DNA of 63,367 nucleotides, the filler included, from Asterionella formosa (Eukaryota), in NCBI GenBank assembly GCA_002256025.1. It is 6 parts of 6 records of this genome, joined end to end, with 100 filler letters (N's around TTAATTAATTAA, not from the genome) between each part and the next. Parts side by side here need not be neighbours in the genome. Positions count along the whole stretch, not along the records: positions 42,331 to 62,044 come from NKIB01003577.1; 5 more parts are not named here. One strand, written 5' to 3'. Each line of letters begins with the position of its first letter. The first letter of the stretch is position 1. The notes beneath the pieces are model-generated. The model was not told where the DNA came from. It made no database searches and was given only the letters and a program-made list of their open reading frames with translations. A program made the translations under genes and the position numbers. Below, piece after piece: positions 47,860-55,929 of the stretch.

Positions 47860-48439
47860 TAATGTACAGACGATGAGTGTAATTGTTATCATCTTTGTTT
47901 CGTTTCTGTATGCGGCGATTTTAAAGTGAACACAAATACAATGAAGTTGTTGTAGCGACATCTGTTGAATGAGCATGTCTTTTATCATTGTCAAAGACCC
48001 TTTGTTGTCAATGAAAAAATCAGTAGGAGTGATATGTGCAACCCACTGGTCATCCTGTTTCCTTGCTGCAGAGTAAGTTTCATTGTCCAAAGACAATTCA
48101 AATGATGCCATTGTGCAAGTCATTTACAAGTGATGAAAAGCGTTATTCCATGAGTAGCTAGTGATAATAATAATTGCTTAGAATCCCTCCTCCCAAAATT
48201 CATTTCTGTTGTTGCTGTTAGAGATAAAAATGTTTCTTTGTTGATTAATTTAATTACATGTTAAATATTAATTTTATAAAATTAGTGTTAACGCTGTATC
48301 TGCAGCGATACACACAGATACACATTTTGGAGCAACAAAAAATGTGTTGCTGGAAGCAACATATCACCGGATATGTGAGATACAAAAAATTGGGCCAAGC
48401 AACAATTTTTGATTTTTGTATCTCTGTTAAGATTGGCCC
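47860..48439 (-). mobile_element. Truncated DNA-transposon end, copy 1 (Harbinger-like terminus)
   Basis: Inverted homolog of 62324-62870. The shared sequence stops at GGGCCAATCTTAACAGAGATACA. Confidence 0.65.
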
Positions 48440-48631
48440 TTTTTTAACTGTTGGTATCTTGGTGCAACCTGTAAATTTTTCAATAGGTCCACCATACTAT
48501 GCTTCATCCAAAGATCCTGGGTTTGTGTGCTTTAAATGTCTTCTTCATGTTCATTCTGGCTATCAAAAGGTTTAGCTCTGAAAAACGTTAGTCCATAATT
48601 TAAAAATGGATCTATAAGGTAATCTGACATG

Positions 48632-49657
48632 TCATCCTTTATTGTCTAGTCCCCTACTTCTGAGGAATGCGTTCTTGATGTTTTGTTTTTCCAATATCTT
48701 CTCGATTGCATTTGGAAGTTCGTTTAATCTCGAAATTTTTTCACTCACGTCCTTCATTCCCTTGCTGCCCAATTTTCGTCGACTGTTTGCATGTCGAGGT
48801 GACAATGTAGACCAGGATGGCTGACCACCTGCTGATACTTGCGAATCAGTCGACTTCTTTAACTCTTCCAACTCAATCCAAACTGCATGAGCTCCATTCC
48901 GGCTTGACCCCCATACATCATTCGCCAAGCAATCTCCGACATGACACCAAACATGTGAATTCACGGTGAGGCTGCGTGGGTAACGTTCGTGGTATGCGGC
49001 TATGCAGGCTTTGAAAATTCCTTTTTGAGGCTTCCTCTCTGGAAAGATTTTATCGTCTTCACCGCTAATGCAAAACTCAAAATAGGGTGCAAGAGTCGAG
49101 TTCATAAAGAGTGGATTGCCGCGCCCATTCGTAATGGCAGCGATGCAAACATGTGGATATTTCTCCTTAATCTTGTTCAGCATGTCAATGGCACCCACGA
49201 ATAGGTTACGCTCCGCCGAACGATGTCGTTCGTCCAACCATGCATTGTAAATATCGTGCACCAAATCATAGTTGACCACGTCTCCAGGCATCGAAAAGAA
49301 CTCCAACTCCTGCTGAATAGCCCGCTTTCTCAGTTCTGTATATGTCATCCTTCGTTTGGATTTACGCTGAATCGCCTTGGTATGGCGGAGAATATTTGTG
49401 TCTGTGGCTTTGGGGTAGCCAGCTGCGTGAAAGGCTTGAATCATGGCAACATCAGCATCAAACACCACAGACATGACCGGGAAGAGAGTGTCGTCCAAAT
49501 CAAATGTGAGCAGCGCCAATTTGGGTGTTTCCTCCTCGGATCCCGTTGTGCTGTAAAGTGAAGAAGATGAAGGATATGTTCTAACTCCAAATTGTGGACT
49601 TAAGCCAGCCACTGCCGTCGAAACTGACAACAACAGAACCACGGAAATACCAATCAT
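48632..49657 (-). CDS. HAD-superfamily hydrolase/phosphatase with N-terminal signal peptide (341 aa from ATG 49657)
   Basis: Motif I FDLDDTL, motif II ITNG, motif III RKP and motif IV HVGDCLAND are present. MIGISVVLLLSVSTAVAG is followed by a Ser-rich stretch (possible bipartite plastid presequence). 49657 is the only ATG before motif I. Confidence 0.92.
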   Translation of the reverse strand: MIGISVVLLLSVSTAVAGLSPQFGVRTYPSSSSLYSTTGSEEETPKLALLTFDLDDTLFPVMSVVFDADVAMIQAFHAAGYPKATDTNILRHTKAIQRKSKRRMTYTELRKRAIQQELEFFSMPGDVVNYDLVHDIYNAWLDERHRSAERNLFVGAIDMLNKIKEKYPHVCIAAITNGRGNPLFMNSTLAPYFEFCISGEDDKIFPERKPQKGIFKACIAAYHERYPRSLTVNSHVWCHVGDCLANDVWGSSRNGAHAVWIELEELKKSTDSQVSAGGQPSWSTLSPRHANSRRKLGSKGMKDVSEKISRLNELPNAIEKILEKQNIKNAFLRSRGLDNKG

Positions 49658-49676
49658 TCTGAGTGCTCCGGTAGAG

Positions 49677-50116
49677 CTATCCAAAGAAGCTCTTTTTGGC
49701 GTTTTCTGCTAATCTGCGTGCGCGTTCGTCGCTTCGACAAGCTTTGTAATTGTCGTAAAATGGTTGACAAGCGCCTTTGTTGTCGTAGTTTTCCTGAATG
49801 CACTCCAGCGAACGCCCGTATTCGAGACGACAGTCAGTGGCAAGCTTTTTTGCGATTTTGAAGTAAATAGTAGACTCATATGTGTGAGGGAAAGGGGAGA
49901 ACTGACGGAGAACACGAACGCAAACATAAACATGTTCGAAACATACTGGCGGCTCCTAACAACAAGTACAAAGGCGGGAAAGCTACCAGTACTAACCTTG
50001 GAGTTTTGCTTTCCATGCGAGTCGAACGAGGGTCTCAAGGGCTGACCTGCGTTATGCTGGTTAAAGTCTGTTGCAATTTTTCCCTTATTCGCTGCTGTTA
50101 ACTCTGATGAGGACAT
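49677..50116 (-). CDS. COX23: Twin CX9C mitochondrial IMS protein, COX23/CHCHD7-like (95 aa); complement(join(49677..49844,49997..50116))
   Basis: Exon 1 (MSSSEL...KQNSK) ends at a phase-0 GTTAGT donor. The intron 49845-49996 has a CTCAC branch-like site and an AAG acceptor. Exon 2 reads LATDCRLEYGRSLECIQENYDNKGACQPFYDNYKACRSDERARRLAENAKKSFFG*, i.e. C-x9-C-x10-C-x9-C. Not in the ORF track. Confidence 0.85.
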
Positions 50117-50601
50117 ACTGCATCCAATTTCGAAAATAGTGAACAAATGATTTATGGCAGCATCTTGATGTGGTTGTCGTGGACGAATTACAGCTAAACC
50201 CGACTTTTTGTGTCAGCAAGCAATGGCGTCAGCCAGATCGATCGGCGGTCAGTAGTGGATCTTCAGGCGTGTGTATCCGAGATCACCATATCGTCATTTC
50301 GGCAATTTTGCCGCAACTTGCATGTACCAGGTACCTGGTACCTTGTAACAGGGTACCAGGTACATGGTACCAGTACCACCATCTATGGTCGTCCGTGTAC
50401 TTGACGTGTACTGAGTACCTGGTACCTGGCACCAGGTACTGCACGGTATTTGGTTTTGTTGATGACTGATTGGTTTGCTTTCTTTGCACTTACGGAGGAC
50501 AGCAGCATCGCATACCGGTATGCACCCTGGGTGGTGTACTCGTACCCTGGTACCAGGTACCTACTCCAGTTTATCTACCGGTACAAGTGCGAAAATTGAC
50601 G

Positions 50602-50620: not shown

Positions 50621-50940
50621 TTGAATGTCCGTACGCTGTCCGCTAGTCCCGACGAAAATTTTACTCTTACTTCTTAGGTATTCATTACGGGTGATGTAAC
50701 TCGGCTGTCATGGTTCCCTCCTTTACATGGAACTTTTGGACTAGACTACCGGTACCGCTATTTTGGATTCCTGTGAATGGCTATGTCATTGATACAGGTA
50801 GAGACGATCTATGTAGGAACTATCGGTGCATATTTAGAAGCAAGCACACAAAAATACTGTTGCAGTTCCATGAAGATAACAAAATAGTTGCAGAAACATA
50901 GACTTGTTGAAAGTAATCAAATCACGATCAGTTGCTATGG

Positions 50941-53900
50941 ATGATGGAGCTCCAAGGACTTCTCAATGATTCAGCATACCAAAATGGGAATGAGAAGGAG
51001 TACAGCCCGTTGGTATCGTCGTGCAAACATTTGTTGCAGCCAAATGGCAGCGTTGTTGGGGAAGAGGTCGCTCAGACCGTTCTTCCCATGTTTCCGTCAT
51101 TCTTTAGTTGCATACCATCCCGATCATCTCCCGCCCTTGCCAGCATTGATGGTCGTGCGTCCATCAATCAAGACCGAGTTCGAGACTTCATCCAACGAGA
51201 ATTGGGACCGTCGATCCATGCTCTTGGCTTTGGTCGTGGCCATCGGATCGCTGTGGTCTTACCAAATGGACCAGAGTTGGCTCTGGCTGTCCTTGCCATT
51301 GCGAATTGGTCTTGTTGCGTCCCTCTCAACGCATCAGGTGCCAAGAGCGAGCTCGAAGCAGACTTGCGAGCATGTGGCGCCAGTCTTGTCATCGGTCTAG
51401 CAACTCTACAACAGTATAATGATGACGAAAACCAAGGCGGCACCAAAAGTCGTACTGTTATTCCCAACAGCAAGGATGGTTGTTTCAATGTCATGCCAAG
51501 CAACACAATGTCGGAATTTGGTGCGTTCGACCATGTTCACGAGACTGCCCGAAAACTTGGGATTCCTTTCGTTGGTCTTGTGCCGTCCAAACGCGAAGCT
51601 GGAATTTTTCGTTTGATCTCAGGCCTTCCAGTCACGGTAACTGACTCTTTGTCTGTTTCCGGAGGCGTGGATGCATATGGAACCTTTGGATCTTCTCAAG
51701 AAAGGGTGAATGAGTCTCCTGGAGGGCCCGTAACGTCGTCCAACCGGTTCTGGCCATGTTGCCATGATGATGAAGTGTTGGTGTTGTTTACCTCTGGAAC
51801 CACAGGGAACAAGAAGATTGTTGCCCATAAACTTGGAGAAATGATAGTAGCTACCGCAACTATCTCTTTGTCTTGGGATTTGACGTCCGCGGACGTCAAC
51901 TGTAACTTGATGCCGTTGTTTCATGTGGGTGGAATAGTCCGTCAAGTCTTTTCCCCTGTCATGTCCGGTGGATGTGTCATTTGCTGTCCTAGTTTTGATA
52001 CAAGCACCTTTTGGGCACTGTTGAAAAACCAGGCTTTCAATTGGTACTATGCTGCTCCTACTATGCATCAAATGATTTTGCAGGCTGGAAAGGAACAAAT
52101 CAATGGCACAATTACACTTGCACAGTCAATGAATCCTAAGCTACGTATGATCGCGAACGCTGCTGGTGGGTTGCTACCTTCGTTAGCGTTTGAGCTCCGA
52201 GATACGTTTCATGCGAATGTCTTACCATCCTATGGTATGACCGAATGCATGCCTATTTCGTCGCCTCCTTTTAATTATCAACTAGACAAACCAGGAACTT
52301 CTGGAGTAGCTGTTGGCCCTGAAATAGGCATTCTCAATTTGACCACTTTCAAGGCCTTGGAACCTGGTGTCGAAGGTCCTATTTGCGTCCGAGGATCACC
52401 GTGTTTTCTTGGCTATGGATTCAATCTTTCTGATCCCACTCAAACAACCGGAAAGGATTCCTTTATGAAGGACGGTTGGTTCAACACTGGTGACTTGGGT
52501 TACCTTGATCAGGATGGCTTTCTTTTCATTACTGGTCGTTCCAAAGAAGTCATCAATCGTGGCGGTGAAATTATCAGCCCAATGGAAGTTGAGGAAGCCA
52601 TCTTGAGCCATCCAGATGTTGTTGTGTGTGCTGCATTCTCAGCTTTTCACGATGTTCTACAAGAAGTTGTGGGAATTGTCATTGTGCCCAAGCCGAATCG
52701 ACCTCGGTTGGATCTTCAAGTTTTGCATGAGTACTTGGGAACTGATCGATTGGCATCACCCAAGTGGCCACAGTGTTTGGTCTTTATGGATGCCCTCCCT
52801 AAATCGCATACGAACAAGTTGCTGCGAGTTAAGTTGGGAGAGCGGCTTGGTCTGCCTGAGTTCACTGACGGCATGCATCCAATTGAGCGAACTTTTCAAG
52901 CTGTTTGTCCTCCACAAGGAACACCCCTGGAAACACCGATCTTTTGTGAGCAAGTCATCGTGTCGCCAAAAGAAGTTCAAGGCGCTCTACAAAAGAGTTT
53001 GTTGGATTCATTTGACTCGGTATCGCCAGAACACCAGGTTTGGGTGATACCTCATCCAACTCGAGTTGGCTCATTAGTTTGCCATGTATATGAAGTAGAT
53101 AGAAAGACGGCAATCGAAATGGCAAAGAAATGCTTGCATAGTTATCTTATCCCTTCCCATTTTTGTGTTTTGGAAACTAAGGCTATTGATGAGAATGATT
53201 TGTTGGCTCCTAGGCCGTCGGACGCTGTGATCAGTATTCTACTTGGACCTTCCAGTGGAGTGGTTGATCCATTGGTGCAAGAAATTCAAGATATCTTTCA
53301 GTCCCTACTGGACCTCGATTATGTTCCTCCTCCGGAATCGAGTTTCTTCAATCTTGGTGGGTCATCGTTGCTAGGCTCTCAGCTAGCAAGTCGAGTTCGG
53401 AAGATCCACGACATTTCCTTCAGCGGAGCCGAAGTCTTTCAGCATCCTAGCTGTAAAGCGATTGCAAAATTAATTGAAGAACGACAAAGTGCTGGCATAG
53501 GTGGTTCTAAATCAAAGTCTGTCAGTACAAAAGGCGCAACATTTCCATCCGAACGTCTCCCAGCAGAAGATGGTCTTTTCTCGGCTCTTGTACAATTGAC
53601 GCCACTGTGCATCGTCTATCCAATCTATCAAATTTCCAGGTTCTTTCTCTTCTTTAATGTTTTGCTCTGGACTCTTCACAGCATTCCTTCTGAGGGCTCC
53701 ATAATAACATTTGTGCTAACATTGATAATCTTCCACTTGTTGTGGGTCACATTCATGCCACTTGTGTTTGTTATTATCAAGTGGACAGTTATCGGACAAT
53801 ACAAAGAAGGTCGATATGCACTATGGAGTAATTACTATTTGCGTTGGTGGTTTGTTGACGTTTGTCGCAAGCTGTTTGGTAGGGGCATCTGGGGATCAAG

Positions 53901-55929
53901 TAAGCCAGTTTTAAACTTTTACTATCGCATGCTGGGTGCTAAAATTGGTAAAGGAGCAAAAATTTCATTGGAAGCAACACTTGCTGAATTTGATTTGGTT
54001 ACTATTGGAGAAGGAGCAGCAATTGAACATTCGACTGTTCGTGCTTTTGGATTGGACAATGGAGCCATGATTTTGGGGTCCATTTATGTTGGCAGTTATG
54101 CAAGTGTCGGATGTCGATCTATTGTTGCTCCTTTCACTATGGTTCCCGATGATTGTCATTTGGGACCAGTTTCGTCATCATATGAAGTGGGAACTGCTCT
54201 TGATAACAAGCATGTGAGATACAATCGGGCAGCCCTGCCGACACCCAATCTCTTCACACAAGTCTGTATTGGGGCACCTATCACATTTCTGGTGGATTGC
54301 ATTTCAAAATTTCCTGCGTTCCTTGTTCTCTACTATATGATGAAAATTCCAGGACGCCAGAGTAATGCTGAGTTCGGGACATTAAGTGATTTGATGGAGT
54401 GGTTGTGTGATCTCCGAAGAATTCCTTACTATATTGGGATTAGAATGGCAAAGAACCTTTTAACTCCATTTGTGAAAATGACAGGTGCACTTGTAGTCAA
54501 ATGGCTTATCATTGGTAAATTCCATGCTGGACCTCGAGATACAACATCTGAATGGCAACTATTGAGGCATTGGTTGGCGGCAACGTTGTTTTCTCGCCAA
54601 AACATGCAAGAAGTGACTGAGCTTCTGGGCCGACATTATGAGCTGGTGAGTTGCCTATACCGCCTTTGTGGTGCCAAGATTGGATATCGTGTTTTTTGGC
54701 CAGGCGTACAACCAGTTTTTGGTGGCGAGTTTGAGTTGCTGGAAATTGGAGACGATGTTGTCTTTGGATCCCGTAGTACTATGCTATGCACGACATCAGA
54801 CTGTTGTGAGAAGATCACACTTTGTGCGGGTTCCAATGTTGCAGATAACTGCGTGCTTCTTCCAGGTTCAATCATTGGAAAGAATGCTGTTCTTGGCTCC
54901 AATTCAGTTTGTCCTGAAGGTCGTTACCTACCTGAATCAAGTTTGTGGTTTGGTTCTCAAGGGTGTGAGCCTGTCTTACTGGAACAGGGAACAGAGGATA
55001 TATCTGGCGTGATTATGTCTACTGATATCAAACAAGATAAGCTTCAATTTGAAGGTGATAGCTCCACTCTTCGTCCATTTGGCAAGGCATTTTACAATGG
55101 CAAGGCCACCTATAGGGTCATACCTTTGTACATGGTGATAATTTTTACCTTCACAGTACGAATATTCTTTGCTGCTTTTCATACCACTCCACTCCTTGGT
55201 GCCCTTCACGGAGCTGGTGGTTTCTTGTGGGGATTTCGCTTTGAAGATCGAGACTATGCTTCAATTCATTACTCCTCTGCGACCGTCTTTATGACATTGT
55301 TGACAATTGCCTTCATTACCAATTTCATTCGTGTCTTGCTGTGGGCAGCCATTGAGGTCAGTGCAAAATGGGCTATTATGGGTCGCAGAAAGGAAGGAAG
55401 ATACAATTGGGATACATCTCCATATGCACAGAATTGGGAGTTGTATCAGGGTATAACACGAATTCGACAAATTGGGCGTCACAGCATGATGGATTTCATC
55501 TGCGGTACCCGGTACATGGTTGATTTCTTCCGTTGGCATGGTTGTAAAATTGGTAAAAGCGTTTGTCTCTACCCTACCGGAGGTGATCCCTACATGCCAG
55601 AACCAGACCTTGTTGAAATTGGAGACCAATCTGCAATTGACTGTGCTTCCATTGTTACACATTTGAACACAAAGGGAAATTTCGAATTGGTAAAAATTAA
55701 AGTGAGCAAGCATTGCACTTTACGAGCACGGTCAAGAATCCAACAAGGTGTCTTTATGGAACCTGGTTCTATGTTGTTGGAGAAAGGTCTTGCCATGACT
55801 GGGGAAGTCATTGAAGCTGACAGTGTTTGGCAAGGTGCACCAGCATCAAGACTGTTTGCATACTCAAGTGACCCTTTACTTCCGTCAGATTCATGTTCAG
55901 ATTTTGTTGATGATGGGTACCTTGTTTAG
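50941..55929 (+). CDS. Membrane-bound NRPS-like enzyme: adenylation domain, carrier (T) domain, three TM/left-handed beta-helix terminal repeats (epsilon-poly-lysine synthetase-like architecture), 1662 aa
   Basis: A-domain motifs LFTSGTTGNKK, SYGMTE, FNTGDLG, ITGRSKEVINRGGE and LPKSHTNK. The T motif is FFNLGGSSL. Three blocks read KW..IG....G.Y..W...GAKIG...LV.IG. The first ATG is at 50941; no intron is needed. Confidence 0.93.
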   Translation: MMELQGLLNDSAYQNGNEKEYSPLVSSCKHLLQPNGSVVGEEVAQTVLPMFPSFFSCIPSRSSPALASIDGRASINQDRVRDFIQRELGPSIHALGFGRGHRIAVVLPNGPELALAVLAIANWSCCVPLNASGAKSELEADLRACGASLVIGLATLQQYNDDENQGGTKSRTVIPNSKDGCFNVMPSNTMSEFGAFDHVHETARKLGIPFVGLVPSKREAGIFRLISGLPVTVTDSLSVSGGVDAYGTFGSSQERVNESPGGPVTSSNRFWPCCHDDEVLVLFTSGTTGNKKIVAHKLGEMIVATATISLSWDLTSADVNCNLMPLFHVGGIVRQVFSPVMSGGCVICCPSFDTSTFWALLKNQAFNWYYAAPTMHQMILQAGKEQINGTITLAQSMNPKLRMIANAAGGLLPSLAFELRDTFHANVLPSYGMTECMPISSPPFNYQLDKPGTSGVAVGPEIGILNLTTFKALEPGVEGPICVRGSPCFLGYGFNLSDPTQTTGKDSFMKDGWFNTGDLGYLDQDGFLFITGRSKEVINRGGEIISPMEVEEAILSHPDVVVCAAFSAFHDVLQEVVGIVIVPKPNRPRLDLQVLHEYLGTDRLASPKWPQCLVFMDALPKSHTNKLLRVKLGERLGLPEFTDGMHPIERTFQAVCPPQGTPLETPIFCEQVIVSPKEVQGALQKSLLDSFDSVSPEHQVWVIPHPTRVGSLVCHVYEVDRKTAIEMAKKCLHSYLIPSHFCVLETKAIDENDLLAPRPSDAVISILLGPSSGVVDPLVQEIQDIFQSLLDLDYVPPPESSFFNLGGSSLLGSQLASRVRKIHDISFSGAEVFQHPSCKAIAKLIEERQSAGIGGSKSKSVSTKGATFPSERLPAEDGLFSALVQLTPLCIVYPIYQISRFFLFFNVLLWTLHSIPSEGSIITFVLTLIIFHLLWVTFMPLVFVIIKWTVIGQYKEGRYALWSNYYLRWWFVDVCRKLFGRGIWGSSKPVLNFYYRMLGAKIGKGAKISLEATLAEFDLVTIGEGAAIEHSTVRAFGLDNGAMILGSIYVGSYASVGCRSIVAPFTMVPDDCHLGPVSSSYEVGTALDNKHVRYNRAALPTPNLFTQVCIGAPITFLVDCISKFPAFLVLYYMMKIPGRQSNAEFGTLSDLMEWLCDLRRIPYYIGIRMAKNLLTPFVKMTGALVVKWLIIGKFHAGPRDTTSEWQLLRHWLAATLFSRQNMQEVTELLGRHYELVSCLYRLCGAKIGYRVFWPGVQPVFGGEFELLEIGDDVVFGSRSTMLCTTSDCCEKITLCAGSNVADNCVLLPGSIIGKNAVLGSNSVCPEGRYLPESSLWFGSQGCEPVLLEQGTEDISGVIMSTDIKQDKLQFEGDSSTLRPFGKAFYNGKATYRVIPLYMVIIFTFTVRIFFAAFHTTPLLGALHGAGGFLWGFRFEDRDYASIHYSSATVFMTLLTIAFITNFIRVLLWAAIEVSAKWAIMGRRKEGRYNWDTSPYAQNWELYQGITRIRQIGRHSMMDFICGTRYMVDFFRWHGCKIGKSVCLYPTGGDPYMPEPDLVEIGDQSAIDCASIVTHLNTKGNFELVKIKVSKHCTLRARSRIQQGVFMEPGSMLLEKGLAMTGEVIEADSVWQGAPASRLFAYSSDPLLPSDSCSDFVDDGYLV

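Follow-up and report, generated by a model that had tools for sequence, protein, structure and literature searches.

Tandem twin-CX9C and HAD-superfamily hydrolase genes in the diatom Asterionella formosa: a probable ancient bicistronic mRNA

The window, by which we mean the whole stretch of 63,367 nucleotides analysed, includes a part of the Asterionella formosa record NKIB01003577.1 in which two ORFs lie in tandem on the minus strand, the strand of all the features given here. The upstream ORF encodes a twin-CX9C protein resembling COX23/CHCHD7 and is split in two: exon 1 (49997..50116) supplies 40 codons, begins with an ATG at 50116 and contains a conserved HNxGQP stretch, while exon 2 (49677..49844) supplies 55 codons and a TAG stop (49679-49677) and holds both CX9C pairs. 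The exons are separated by a GT..AG intron of 152 nt (49845..49996), whose joint is found in RNA contigs. A spacer of 19 nt without an ATG, CTCTACCGGAGCACTCAGA (49658..49676), leads to the downstream ORF (48632..49657; ATG at 49657, stop at 48634-48632), a single exon that encodes a HAD-superfamily hydrolase (type IA, YigB-like) of 341 aa with a signal-peptide-like N-terminal segment. A preliminary description had placed a spliced 95-aa COX23-like CDS here with its stop at 49677 and the only usable HAD ATG at 49657, 19 nt past that stop; our reading of the minus strand and recomputed coordinates agree with both. The HAD frame is open only from 49708, past a TAG at 49711-49709, and 49657 is the only usable ATG because the next in-frame Met, residue 61, sits beyond the catalytic FDLDDT motif.

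The ends of RNA contigs, though weak indicators of where transcription begins, suggest a 5' leader at 50117..50200. From a listing of upstream ATGs and from the sequence itself, this leader contains two short uORFs, with ATGs at -47 and -7 relative to the CX9C ATG: the first (ATG 50163, end 50152) reads MLP*, and the second (ATG 50123, end 50085) has 12 codons and overlaps the CX9C start. Only one ATG (50014..50016, at +100) lies in the interval from the CX9C start to the HAD start; it is out of the CX9C frame, and the 51-codon ORF that it begins ends with the TAG at 49711-49709, leaving 51 nt to the HAD ATG. A motif scan of the minus strand from 50200 to 48400 returned a sole AATAAA, at 48638..48643. 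It lies beside the HAD stop, and the locus thus offers neither space nor a signal for separate messages, in line with the earlier argument that the 19-nt spacer is too short for a poly(A) site plus a promoter.

The 95-aa product has the arrangement C45-x9-C55 and C66-x9-C76, and all four Cys are invariant across 66 homologs. In the AF2 model, these Cys are borne by two helices, at residues 46-58 and 63-93 (pLDDT of the block 82-91). A Chaetoceros homolog (P0138) is 55% identical over residues 16-92, with no gap across the exon junction. The Pfam family PF06747 matches the window protein at E 9.4e-4 (19.7 bits, against a curated cut-off of 27.2) and six of the six aligned family members at E<=1 (best 1.4e-7), and precomputed matches to it exist for many of the homologs. 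When the family profile was compared with PDB chains, CHCHD7 (2lqt, E 9e-7) and Cox17 (0.017) were the only matches at E<=1. A Foldseek search of the PDB with the AF2 model gave no matches at E<=0.001; among its 32 weak rows (E 2-10) are COA6 and several entries from mitochondrial respiratory complexes and mitoribosomes. By sequence, the diatom family appears closest to CHCHD7/COX23, of which its members are putative orthologs, and the label ‘COX23-like’ given in the preliminary description is borne out by CHCHD7 as best solved relative and by the four of 90 homologs that JGI names ‘cytochrome c oxidase assembly protein subunit 23’. The product shares with yeast COX23 and human CHCHD7 the four Cys, the two CX9C pairs and the helix-turn-helix, but differs in its diatom-specific N-terminal HNxGQP stretch. 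Judging by its family, it would reside in soluble form in the mitochondrial intermembrane space, enter there by disulfide trapping and serve in the biogenesis of cytochrome oxidase.

The downstream protein, which is identical to P0001 of a public collection, is a HAD type IA superfamily hydrolase by its motif I (DxDxT), other conserved motifs and profile matches. Residues F52 D53 L54 D55 T57, T176 N177, K209, G241 D242 and D247 are invariant in 37 HAD sequences, and the HAD profile matches the structure 3vay, itself a HAD protein, at E 7.8e-15, while PF00702 matches at E 2.6e-5 (25.2 bits, slightly under the cut-off of 26.4). The best NCBIfam match is YigB (NF008018; E 5.6e-14), although its 51.9 bits are under the equivalog cut-off of 225 bits, and many of the homologs are named ‘FMN phosphatase YigB’ by JGI. 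Thus the protein resembles the YigB-type HAD IA phosphatases, which act on 5-amino-6-(5-phospho-D-ribitylamino)uracil/FMN, in its DxDxT motif I and invariant HAD residues, but is not an equivalog and differs in its eukaryotic targeting extension and its C-terminal tail of ~70 residues. The orthologs keep a hydrophobic segment at the extreme N-terminus, and HAD therefore needs an N-terminus of its own, a point in favor of the bicistronic reading; in most of them, the aromatic residue that is characteristic of import into diatom plastids comes after the predicted signal peptide. The HAD protein is probably destined for the plastid, so that the two products of the locus would have different destinations, mitochondrial for the CX9C protein and plastid for HAD.

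RNA evidence came from assembled contigs of four runs (X4, X5, X6 and X7). The joint 49844->49997, which skips 152 nt bounded by CT..AC on the plus strand, is present in contigs of three of the four (X4, X6 and X7), from three studies, so that the intron predicted earlier at 49845-49996 is indeed removed. Both ORFs are complete, and the intron absent, in X4 record 1 (1564 nt; 48484-49844 joined to 49997-50199) and X7 record 16 (1432 nt; 48617-49844 joined to 49997-50200), while X6 record 14 (49410-49844 joined to 49997-50177), from which the intron is likewise removed, bridges the ORFs in part. The joint was not seen in the X5 contigs, one of which keeps part of the intron, and this counts against the bicistronic reading; the parts of the stretch that X5 contigs leave uncovered we weigh neither for nor against it. 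Unspliced pieces of low depth or partial extent are X4 record 2 and X5 record 10. The spliced 95-aa protein is also found as a called protein, P0121, on a JGI contig of 2039 nt, and P0220, a 341-aa member of the HAD cluster, is likewise on a JGI contig of 2039 nt; judging by this equal size only, the two presumably share one contig. We regard the intron as real because of the joint in three of the four runs, the called protein P0121 and the gapless Chaetoceros alignment over the junction.

The contigs also bear on an alternative raised in the preliminary description, in which splicing from the donor at 49997 to an acceptor at 49706 would make the locus one gene with two isoforms, one of them a fusion of the CX9C N-terminus to HAD. 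An AG is present at 49707-49706 and the junction would be in frame with HAD, as had been claimed, but its use finds no support in the RNA: no joint to 49706 occurs in contigs of the four runs, which drop rare variants, and 49844->49997 is the sole joint in them. Moreover, some 56 residues of the fusion would precede the HAD signal peptide and leave it buried within the protein.

The 5' ends of the contigs lie at 50199 (X4), 50200 (X7) and 50177 (X6), and the 3' ends at 48617 (X7) and 48628 (X6), with others farther out at 48586 (X5) and 48484 (X4). The AATAAA adjoining the HAD stop is 10-21 nt upstream of the two 3' ends at 48617 and 48628, and among the loose ends listed for the RNA contigs, none falls between 48441 and 50321. 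The locus appears to be one transcription unit of ~1.4-1.6 kb once spliced, running from about 50200 to about 48620/48484, and we infer that single RNA molecules carry both ORFs. A contig that spans two genes is also expected from overlapping separate messages, and does not imply a single transcript. Nested transcripts would be such a case: the long RNA would serve the CX9C protein only, with the HAD ORF as its 3' UTR, and HAD would be made from a shorter message with a promoter or start site within the CX9C gene, an option raised in the preliminary description as a HAD promoter in exon 2; these overlapping messages would be inseparable in contigs. In X4, X6 and X7 no contig 5' end lies within 49677-49844, which argues, if weakly, against such a start site.

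The preliminary description had proposed looking for the same pair and spacing in other diatoms; the pair, with short spacers or an overlap, recurs. We fetched 47 loci with the HAD profile and scanned all 47 for a CX9C ORF. In four distant metagenome loci (L001-L004), a homologous CX9C ORF lies directly upstream of HAD on the same strand (tblastn E 3e-21 to 2e-9), and the HADs of these loci are 37-47% identical to that of the window. The spacers are 15 nt (L003), 22 nt (L004) and 37 nt (L002), while in L001 the ORFs overlap, since the HAD frame has no ATG past the CX9C stop and its ATG is within the CX9C ORF, 98 nt before that stop. That short spacers of 15-37 nt, or an overlap, have been kept despite this divergence of HAD weighs against nested transcripts. 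The CX9C ORF is intronless in all four loci, and thus the splice fusion is not the conserved mechanism; the frame of one ORF relative to the other varies as well (0 in L003, +1 in the others), and we give the fusion very little chance of being correct. Fusion by stop-codon readthrough or frameshift was rejected for the same variation in frame. No shared sequence is visible among the four spacers, and an IRES in the spacer was likewise rejected, 15-37 nt without a shared motif being too short.

The pair is also found in Seminavis robusta, in which Sro814_g206250 (CHCH, f:3590-3973) is followed by Sro814_g206260 (HAD, f:4143-5030), with consecutive accessions. There the annotation records two separate genes with 169 nt between the coding regions, a point in favor of nested transcripts. 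HAD and CX9C matches fall on contigs of exactly equal size 12 times, compared to 1.37 expected per offset, and above 3.5 kb they do so eight times, compared to 0.14 expected; the identical sizes imply eight additional relatives on contigs >3.5 kb with the pair. A search with 90 CX9C queries, which took in 12 of the 47 loci, found no upstream CX9C ORF at E<=0.01 in L005-L012, that is, in eight of the 12 eukaryote-like HAD loci. The HADs of these eight are 30-36% identical to the window HAD, L012 is partial and three of the loci have <300 nt upstream, and we take the loci to hold paralogs or HADs of more distant kinship, or to be short of upstream sequence, rather than to be clean counter-examples, although they do count against the bicistronic reading. 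No poly(A)/poly(T) ends were found on the short contigs L004, L007, L010 and L011. Among MMETSP transcript names in 10 clusters, no CX9C and HAD entries share a transcript number, the species sets being disjoint. Matches to a C-x9-C..C-x9-C regular expression in L001 (minus strand), L002 (720-1175), L028, L032 and L043 were discarded as chance Cys/Ser/Arg-rich ORFs without similarity to the family.

The upstream cistron is depleted of ATGs. From the CX9C start to the HAD start, the five loci together have 10 ATGs in 1642 nt, compared to 114 in the 5004 nt of the HAD ORFs next to them, or 0.61 versus 2.28 per 100 nt (Poisson 1e-7). Dinucleotide shuffles of the region gave 21.7 ATGs on average, and none of 2000 shuffles reached <=10; likewise, only two ATGs come ahead of the first one whose frame continues into HAD, compared to 19.7 in shuffles. 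The first cistron has no ATG in L002 (364 nt) and L003 (234 nt) and one in the window (304 nt); a point against the scanning model is that L004 has five between the two starts. The same tendency is found in the proteins: an internal Met is absent from 59 of the 90 CX9C homologs, and Met makes up 0.46% of their residues compared to 2.08% in 120 HAD homologs. Depletion in all frames is expected if ribosomes must scan through the first cistron, and matches the leaky-scanning signature of the green-algal bicistrons. Since the depletion spans the whole first cistron and not merely its 3' end, it is not explained by scanning from an internal start site, and we consider nested transcripts unlikely.

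The first AUG, of the CX9C ORF, has A or G at -3 in all five loci and G at +4 in two of the five, the loci being compared with one another; the second AUG, of HAD, has a purine at -3 in four of the five, with T in L004 (for L001, the HAD-frame ATG within the CX9C ORF was taken). The context of the CX9C AUG is thus not obviously weak, which speaks against leaky scanning, since under the green-algal model the first AUG should be sub-optimal, and is a further point in favor of nested transcripts. In the window, the out-of-frame AUG at +100 and the two leader uAUGs would cost HAD initiation. Delayed reinitiation driven by uORFs was rejected as a conserved mechanism, since L001-L004 have no uATG within ~190 nt (66 nt are available in L004).

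CX9C AUGs in good context are also what would be wanted if one bicistronic mRNA fed both ORFs by termination and reinitiation, with HAD started 15-37 nt past the CX9C stop. The spacers are very short, and short spacing is said to favor reinitiation in the discussion of PMC11291117. The first ORFs are, however, 73-131 codons long. Ribosomes reinitiate inefficiently past ORFs this long unless special elements assist, and the four spacers have no visible sequence in common. In L001, the signal peptide has a single HAD-frame ATG upstream of it, the one located 98 nt before the CX9C stop. Reinitiation also does not predict ATG depletion within the first ORF, and we find this route quite improbable.

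Our preferred explanation, which we consider probable, is an ancient diatom bicistronic mRNA on which those ribosomes that pass over the first AUG translate HAD. The mature mRNA would carry two unrelated ORFs, the 5' twin-CX9C ORF and, 19 nt farther on, the 3' HAD ORF. Some 40S subunits would bypass the CX9C AUG, meet almost no further AUG across the first cistron and then, most likely, initiate at the HAD AUG by leaky scanning. Three lines of evidence support the bicistronic reading: spliced contigs from three studies bridge the ORFs, the tandem pair is conserved, and the first cistron is depleted of ATGs. The proposal of the preliminary description, that one mRNA yields both proteins, gains from all three, although contigs cannot prove one molecule; translation of both ORFs from one mRNA, and the scanning mechanism, are what we infer from them.

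The textbook eukaryotic mRNA encodes one protein; exceptions are systematic in green algae and scattered among plants, animals and fungi. The preliminary description knew of no characterised diatom bicistrons, and our literature search concurs: it returned no natural diatom bicistronic mRNA, only engineered 2A or chloroplast contexts. We suggest, tentatively and as a claim that may well prove too broad, that the locus supplies the first nuclear bicistronic mRNA of natural origin to be recognised in diatoms, and in stramenopiles as a whole, that it is ancient and common to lineages with ~40%-identical HADs, and that through it a cytochrome-oxidase assembly factor of the mitochondrion is hard-wired to be co-transcribed with a YigB-like phosphatase, plastid-directed and possibly of the flavin pathway, start-codon choice being all that sets the ratio of the two. 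If so, leaky-scanning polycistrony would reach a second major algal lineage, one of secondary-endosymbiotic origin, and one message would couple the expression of a mitochondrial protein to that of a protein probably destined for the plastid. In annotation, such pairs pass for two ordinary genes, Seminavis robusta being a case in point, or the small ORF is overlooked, and more such loci might be hidden among ‘adjacent genes’ of diatoms. The locus would also provide a native template with a very short inter-ORF for two-gene expression in diatom biotechnology.

The closest precedents are the nuclear bicistronic or polycistronic mRNAs of the green algae Chlamydomonas, Chromochloris and Auxenochlorella (PMC7896298, PMC11291117/PMC11892635). 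In these, two unrelated proteins are encoded on one capped, polyadenylated mRNA with the small protein first, and leaky scanning operates through AUG-poor upstream ORFs, with inter-ORFs down to 14 nt or overlapping (PMC11291117). The diatom locus is similar in its order, its short or overlapping inter-ORF, its AUG-poor upstream cistron and the conservation of the pair over long distances; green-algal first cistrons are often small mitochondrial proteins (TOM22, LYR-motif proteins), to which the CX9C protein may be compared. It differs in its lineage (diatoms, stramenopiles) and its gene pair, in a first AUG that is not visibly weak, and in that its co-transcription is deduced from assembled contigs. 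Diatoms are mentioned in neither PMC7896298 nor PMC11291117/PMC11892635, and the terms COX23, CHCH, COX17, COX19, haloacid and twin gave no matches in six supplementary files of PMC7896298.

A second precedent is set by a CHCH protein: in plants, arthropods and nematodes, according to Hayden & Jorgensen 2007 (PMC2075485), it is encoded by a conserved ORF upstream of main ORFs to which it is unrelated. In that paper, homology group 8 of the conserved-peptide uORFs (Mic1-like in land plants) forms a clade sister to CHCHD7-like proteins. The diatom locus resembles group 8 as there described, in which an ancient functional CHCH 5' ORF has been stably joined, in a ‘transcriptional fusion’, to a larger ORF unrelated to it, but the diatom protein is nearest CHCHD7/COX23 itself and its partner is a HAD phosphatase. 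If the bicistronic reading is true, the diatom locus would be a further independent capture of a CHCH protein, in another eukaryotic supergroup.

The CX9C and HAD ORFs lie in tandem on the minus strand, and every coordinate that the preliminary description assigned to the locus proved correct on direct reading of that strand. The first CX9C exon (50116-49997) begins with the ATG at 50116 and comprises 40 codons followed by a GT donor; the second (49844-49677) follows the AG acceptor at 49846-49845 and comprises 55 codons and a TAG stop. Computed joining of the exons yields a 95-aa protein with C-x9-C pairs C45/C55 and C66/C76. A 19-nt spacer, CTCTACCGGAGCACTCAGA (49676-49658, minus strand), precedes the HAD ORF, which runs uninterrupted for 341 codons from the ATG at 49657 to 48632. 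Because the HAD frame is closed upstream by a TAG (49711-49709) and the following Met is already past the catalytic FDLDDT motif, 49657 is the sole usable HAD start. The presumed leader holds two minus-strand uORFs, one starting at 50163 (MLP-stop) and one of 12 codons starting at 50123, which overlaps the CX9C start. The sole minus-strand AATAAA in 50200-48400, at 48643, lies 10-21 nt before the RNA contig ends at 48628 and 48617.

Both proteins fit the identities first proposed for them. The CX9C exon-2 peptide matches Pfam CHCH only below threshold, but all six aligned family members match PF06747, and the best solved relative is human CHCHD7, the COX23 homolog (2lqt; E 5.2e-5 with a 6-member profile and 9e-7 with a 66-member profile), with Cox17 a distant second. 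The JGI label ‘cytochrome c oxidase assembly protein subunit 23’ is attached to 4 of the 90 CX9C homologs found; the label COX23-like is thus borne out. The named organisms shown among these homologs are all diatoms (Pseudo-nitzschia, Nitzschia, Seminavis, Conticribra, Chaetoceros and Craspedostauros-like labels). In an AlphaFold model the four Cys sit on a helix-turn-helix (pLDDT 82-91 there), and a Foldseek search with this model returned no significant match. The description of the larger protein as a signal-peptide-bearing diatom HAD also holds: it is a type IA hydrolase with invariant HAD motifs, a profile match to the HAD structure 3vay (E 7.8e-15), a PF00702 score slightly under the cut-off, and YigB as its nearest NCBIfam model, with a score far under the cut-off of that model. 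Named organisms among the best 120 of its 256 relatives are diatoms. The N-terminus is hydrophobic in the window protein and its orthologs, and in most orthologs examined this segment closes with a small residue and then Phe, the plastid-import (ASAFAP-type) signature of diatoms, where the window protein has Leu. We regard the subcellular destinations of both proteins as putative.

Assembled RNA contigs bridge the two ORFs. Among the runs listed, 20 match the stretch and 19 of these are recorded as RNA, mostly freshwater metatranscriptomes; we used four runs from four studies (X4-X7), as assembled contigs throughout rather than reads. Removal of the predicted intron is seen in contigs of X4, X6 and X7 as a joint 49844->49997 across 152 nt that are bounded by GT..AG on the minus strand. 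One 1564-nt contig in X4 spans 48484-49844 and 49997-50199, and one 1432-nt contig in X7 spans 48617-49844 and 49997-50200; in X6, one contig spans 50177-49410 with the intron spliced out, and another covers 49412-48628. The X5 contigs lack a spliced joint, and part of the intron is kept in one of them; X4 also has an unspliced piece at depth 2. None of the loose contig ends listed falls inside the CX9C-HAD unit. At JGI, the spliced 95-aa protein is on a 2039-nt contig and a 341-aa member of the HAD cluster likewise, which from their equal size we infer to be one contig. The contigs fit a single mRNA of ~1.4-1.6 kb, although overlapping messages would assemble alike, and a contig over two genes is not proof. 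Single-base differences between the window and the RNA contigs (49460, 49581, 49670, 49704 and 48560; for example, A>T at 49460 common to X5 and X7) fit variation among strains or alleles in lake populations. Just past the longest 3' end of the unit, 36 nt (48405-48440) match pieces of unrelated X5 and X6 contigs that then diverge, and are probably a short dispersed repeat.

The alternative splice raised in the preliminary description, from the exon-1 donor at 49997 to 49706, would fuse CX9C exon 1 with HAD and bury the HAD signal peptide. No joint other than 49844->49997, and thus none to 49706, is listed in the X4-X7 contigs, and such a fusion is impossible in the orthologs described below because their CX9C ORFs lack introns; we consider it very improbable.

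The gene pair and its spacing recur elsewhere. A HAD-profile scan of metagenome contigs recovered at least 47 loci, a set from which closer relatives are missing, and all 47 were scanned for a CX9C ORF. In four (L001-L004), a CX9C homolog with an ATG start and no intron lies immediately upstream on the same strand, even though their HADs are only 37-47% identical to that of the window. The stop-to-start distance is 19 nt in the window, 15 in L003, 22 in L004 and 37 in L002. In L001 (2719-2866), the HAD frame has no ATG from the CX9C stop to the signal-peptide segment, and the sole upstream in-frame ATG falls within the CX9C ORF, 98 nt before the CX9C stop and in another frame than CX9C; therefore either the cistrons overlap or HAD has a non-AUG start. 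The public gene call for this HAD begins at a non-ATG codon, 2866, and the Mayamaea model P0049 carries a 36-residue extension ahead of the signal peptide. The other eight eukaryote-like loci yielded no CX9C ORF with 90 queries; their HADs are more remote relatives, and upstream sequence is scant in three of the eight. In Seminavis robusta, a CHCH gene (f:3590-3973) is directly followed on the same strand by a HAD gene (f:4143-5030), and their accessions are consecutive; because this HAD model lacks the N-terminal extension seen in orthologs, the actual gap is possibly shorter than 169 nt. As an indirect tally, longest-contig sizes for HAD matches (117 rows) and CX9C matches (85 rows) coincide exactly 12 times, compared to 1.37 per offset over 600 near-miss offsets, and 8 times above 3.5 kb, compared to 0.14. 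These coincidences include the Seminavis pair and another (7777) comprising the closest relatives (65% and 82% identity).

The first cistron is depleted of ATGs. From CX9C start to HAD start, the five loci (the window and L001-L004) have 10 ATGs in 1642 nt, compared to 114 in 5004 nt of the adjacent HAD ORFs (0.61 versus 2.28 per 100 nt at similar GC; Poisson 1e-7). Dinucleotide-preserving shuffles predict 21.7, and 0 of 2000 had 10 or fewer. The ATGs present are mostly in the HAD frame with no stop intervening before HAD. Ahead of the first HAD-productive ATG stand only two decoys, one at +100 in the window and the other a one-codon ATG-TAA in L004, compared to 19.7 in shuffles (0/2000). The next ATG downstream of the CX9C start is itself HAD-productive in three of five loci (0.5 expected, P 0.004). 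No CX9C protein of the five loci has an internal Met; the frequency is 0.46% in 90 CX9C homologs (zero in 59), compared to 2.08% in 120 HADs, and several exceptions look like Met within miscalled N-terminal extensions.

Depletion over the entire first cistron fits ribosomes scanning through from the cap. A nested HAD message, begun at an internal site such as a promoter in exon 2, would not predict it, and we consider this unlikely. Termination-reinitiation on a bicistronic mRNA agrees with the short spacers, but would not predict the depletion either and misfits both L001 and first ORFs of 73-131 codons; we give it still less credence. The bicistronic interpretation first proposed is thus supported by bridging spliced contigs, a conserved tandem pair and ATG depletion, and its best reading, which we consider probable, is one mRNA with HAD translated via leaky scanning: ribosomes would load at the cap, scan the AUG-poor CX9C cistron and initiate at the HAD AUG. 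IRES, readthrough and frameshift mechanisms were ruled out by spacer length and the non-conserved relative frame of the ORFs. In none of the five loci is the HAD ORF interrupted, and therefore the first stop codon has no exon junction downstream of it; polycistronic messages are typically immune to nonsense-mediated decay (PMC3951408).

Divergent from the unit, a single open frame of 1670 codons (50917-55929, plus strand) has AMP-binding, AMP-binding_C, phosphopantetheine-carrier and hexapeptide-repeat domains, and its predicted product is an adenylating enzyme that bears a carrier domain and a long C-terminal region. A palindromic motif of 7-nt period, GGTACCWGGTACC, occurs 15 times in the window (≤1 mismatch; 0.04 expected), at 50323-50561 and at 179, 7681, 14936, 30714, 40379 and 40485. 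Seven copies form a cluster 120-360 nt upstream of the inferred unit start, within the intergenic region that separates the unit from this divergent frame; short pieces of the motif match RNA contigs that are unrelated and very deep (depth 1046 in X4). The motif is possibly a promoter element, or else a dispersed micro-repeat.

The preliminary description knew of no characterised diatom case, and the literature searched, with most subscription journals outside it, likewise yielded no natural polycistronic or bicistronic mRNA from diatoms or Phaeodactylum; matches were engineered 2A constructs (PMC8517075), reference-list mentions (PMC8307304) and organellar or other-organism contexts. Mechanistically closest are the green-algal polycistrons, in which, according to PMC7896298 and PMC11291117, second-ORF output drops with a stronger first AUG or an added upstream AUG, and some inter-ORFs overlap or are only 14 nt. 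All five CX9C start codons carry a purine at -3, and two have G at +4, which speaks against a straightforward replica of the green-algal model, with its weak first AUG. Thematically closest is the case described by Hayden & Jorgensen 2007 (PMC2075485): in land plants, arthropods and nematodes, a CHCH-domain protein whose clade is sister to that of CHCHD7 forms a conserved uORF ahead of three unrelated main ORFs, pairs which the authors read as stable transcriptional fusions. With HAD as partner, the diatom pair would add another independent CHCH capture. The locus is best filed among leaky-scanning bicistronic nuclear mRNAs with a small mitochondrial protein first, in which both the lineage and the gene pair are new.
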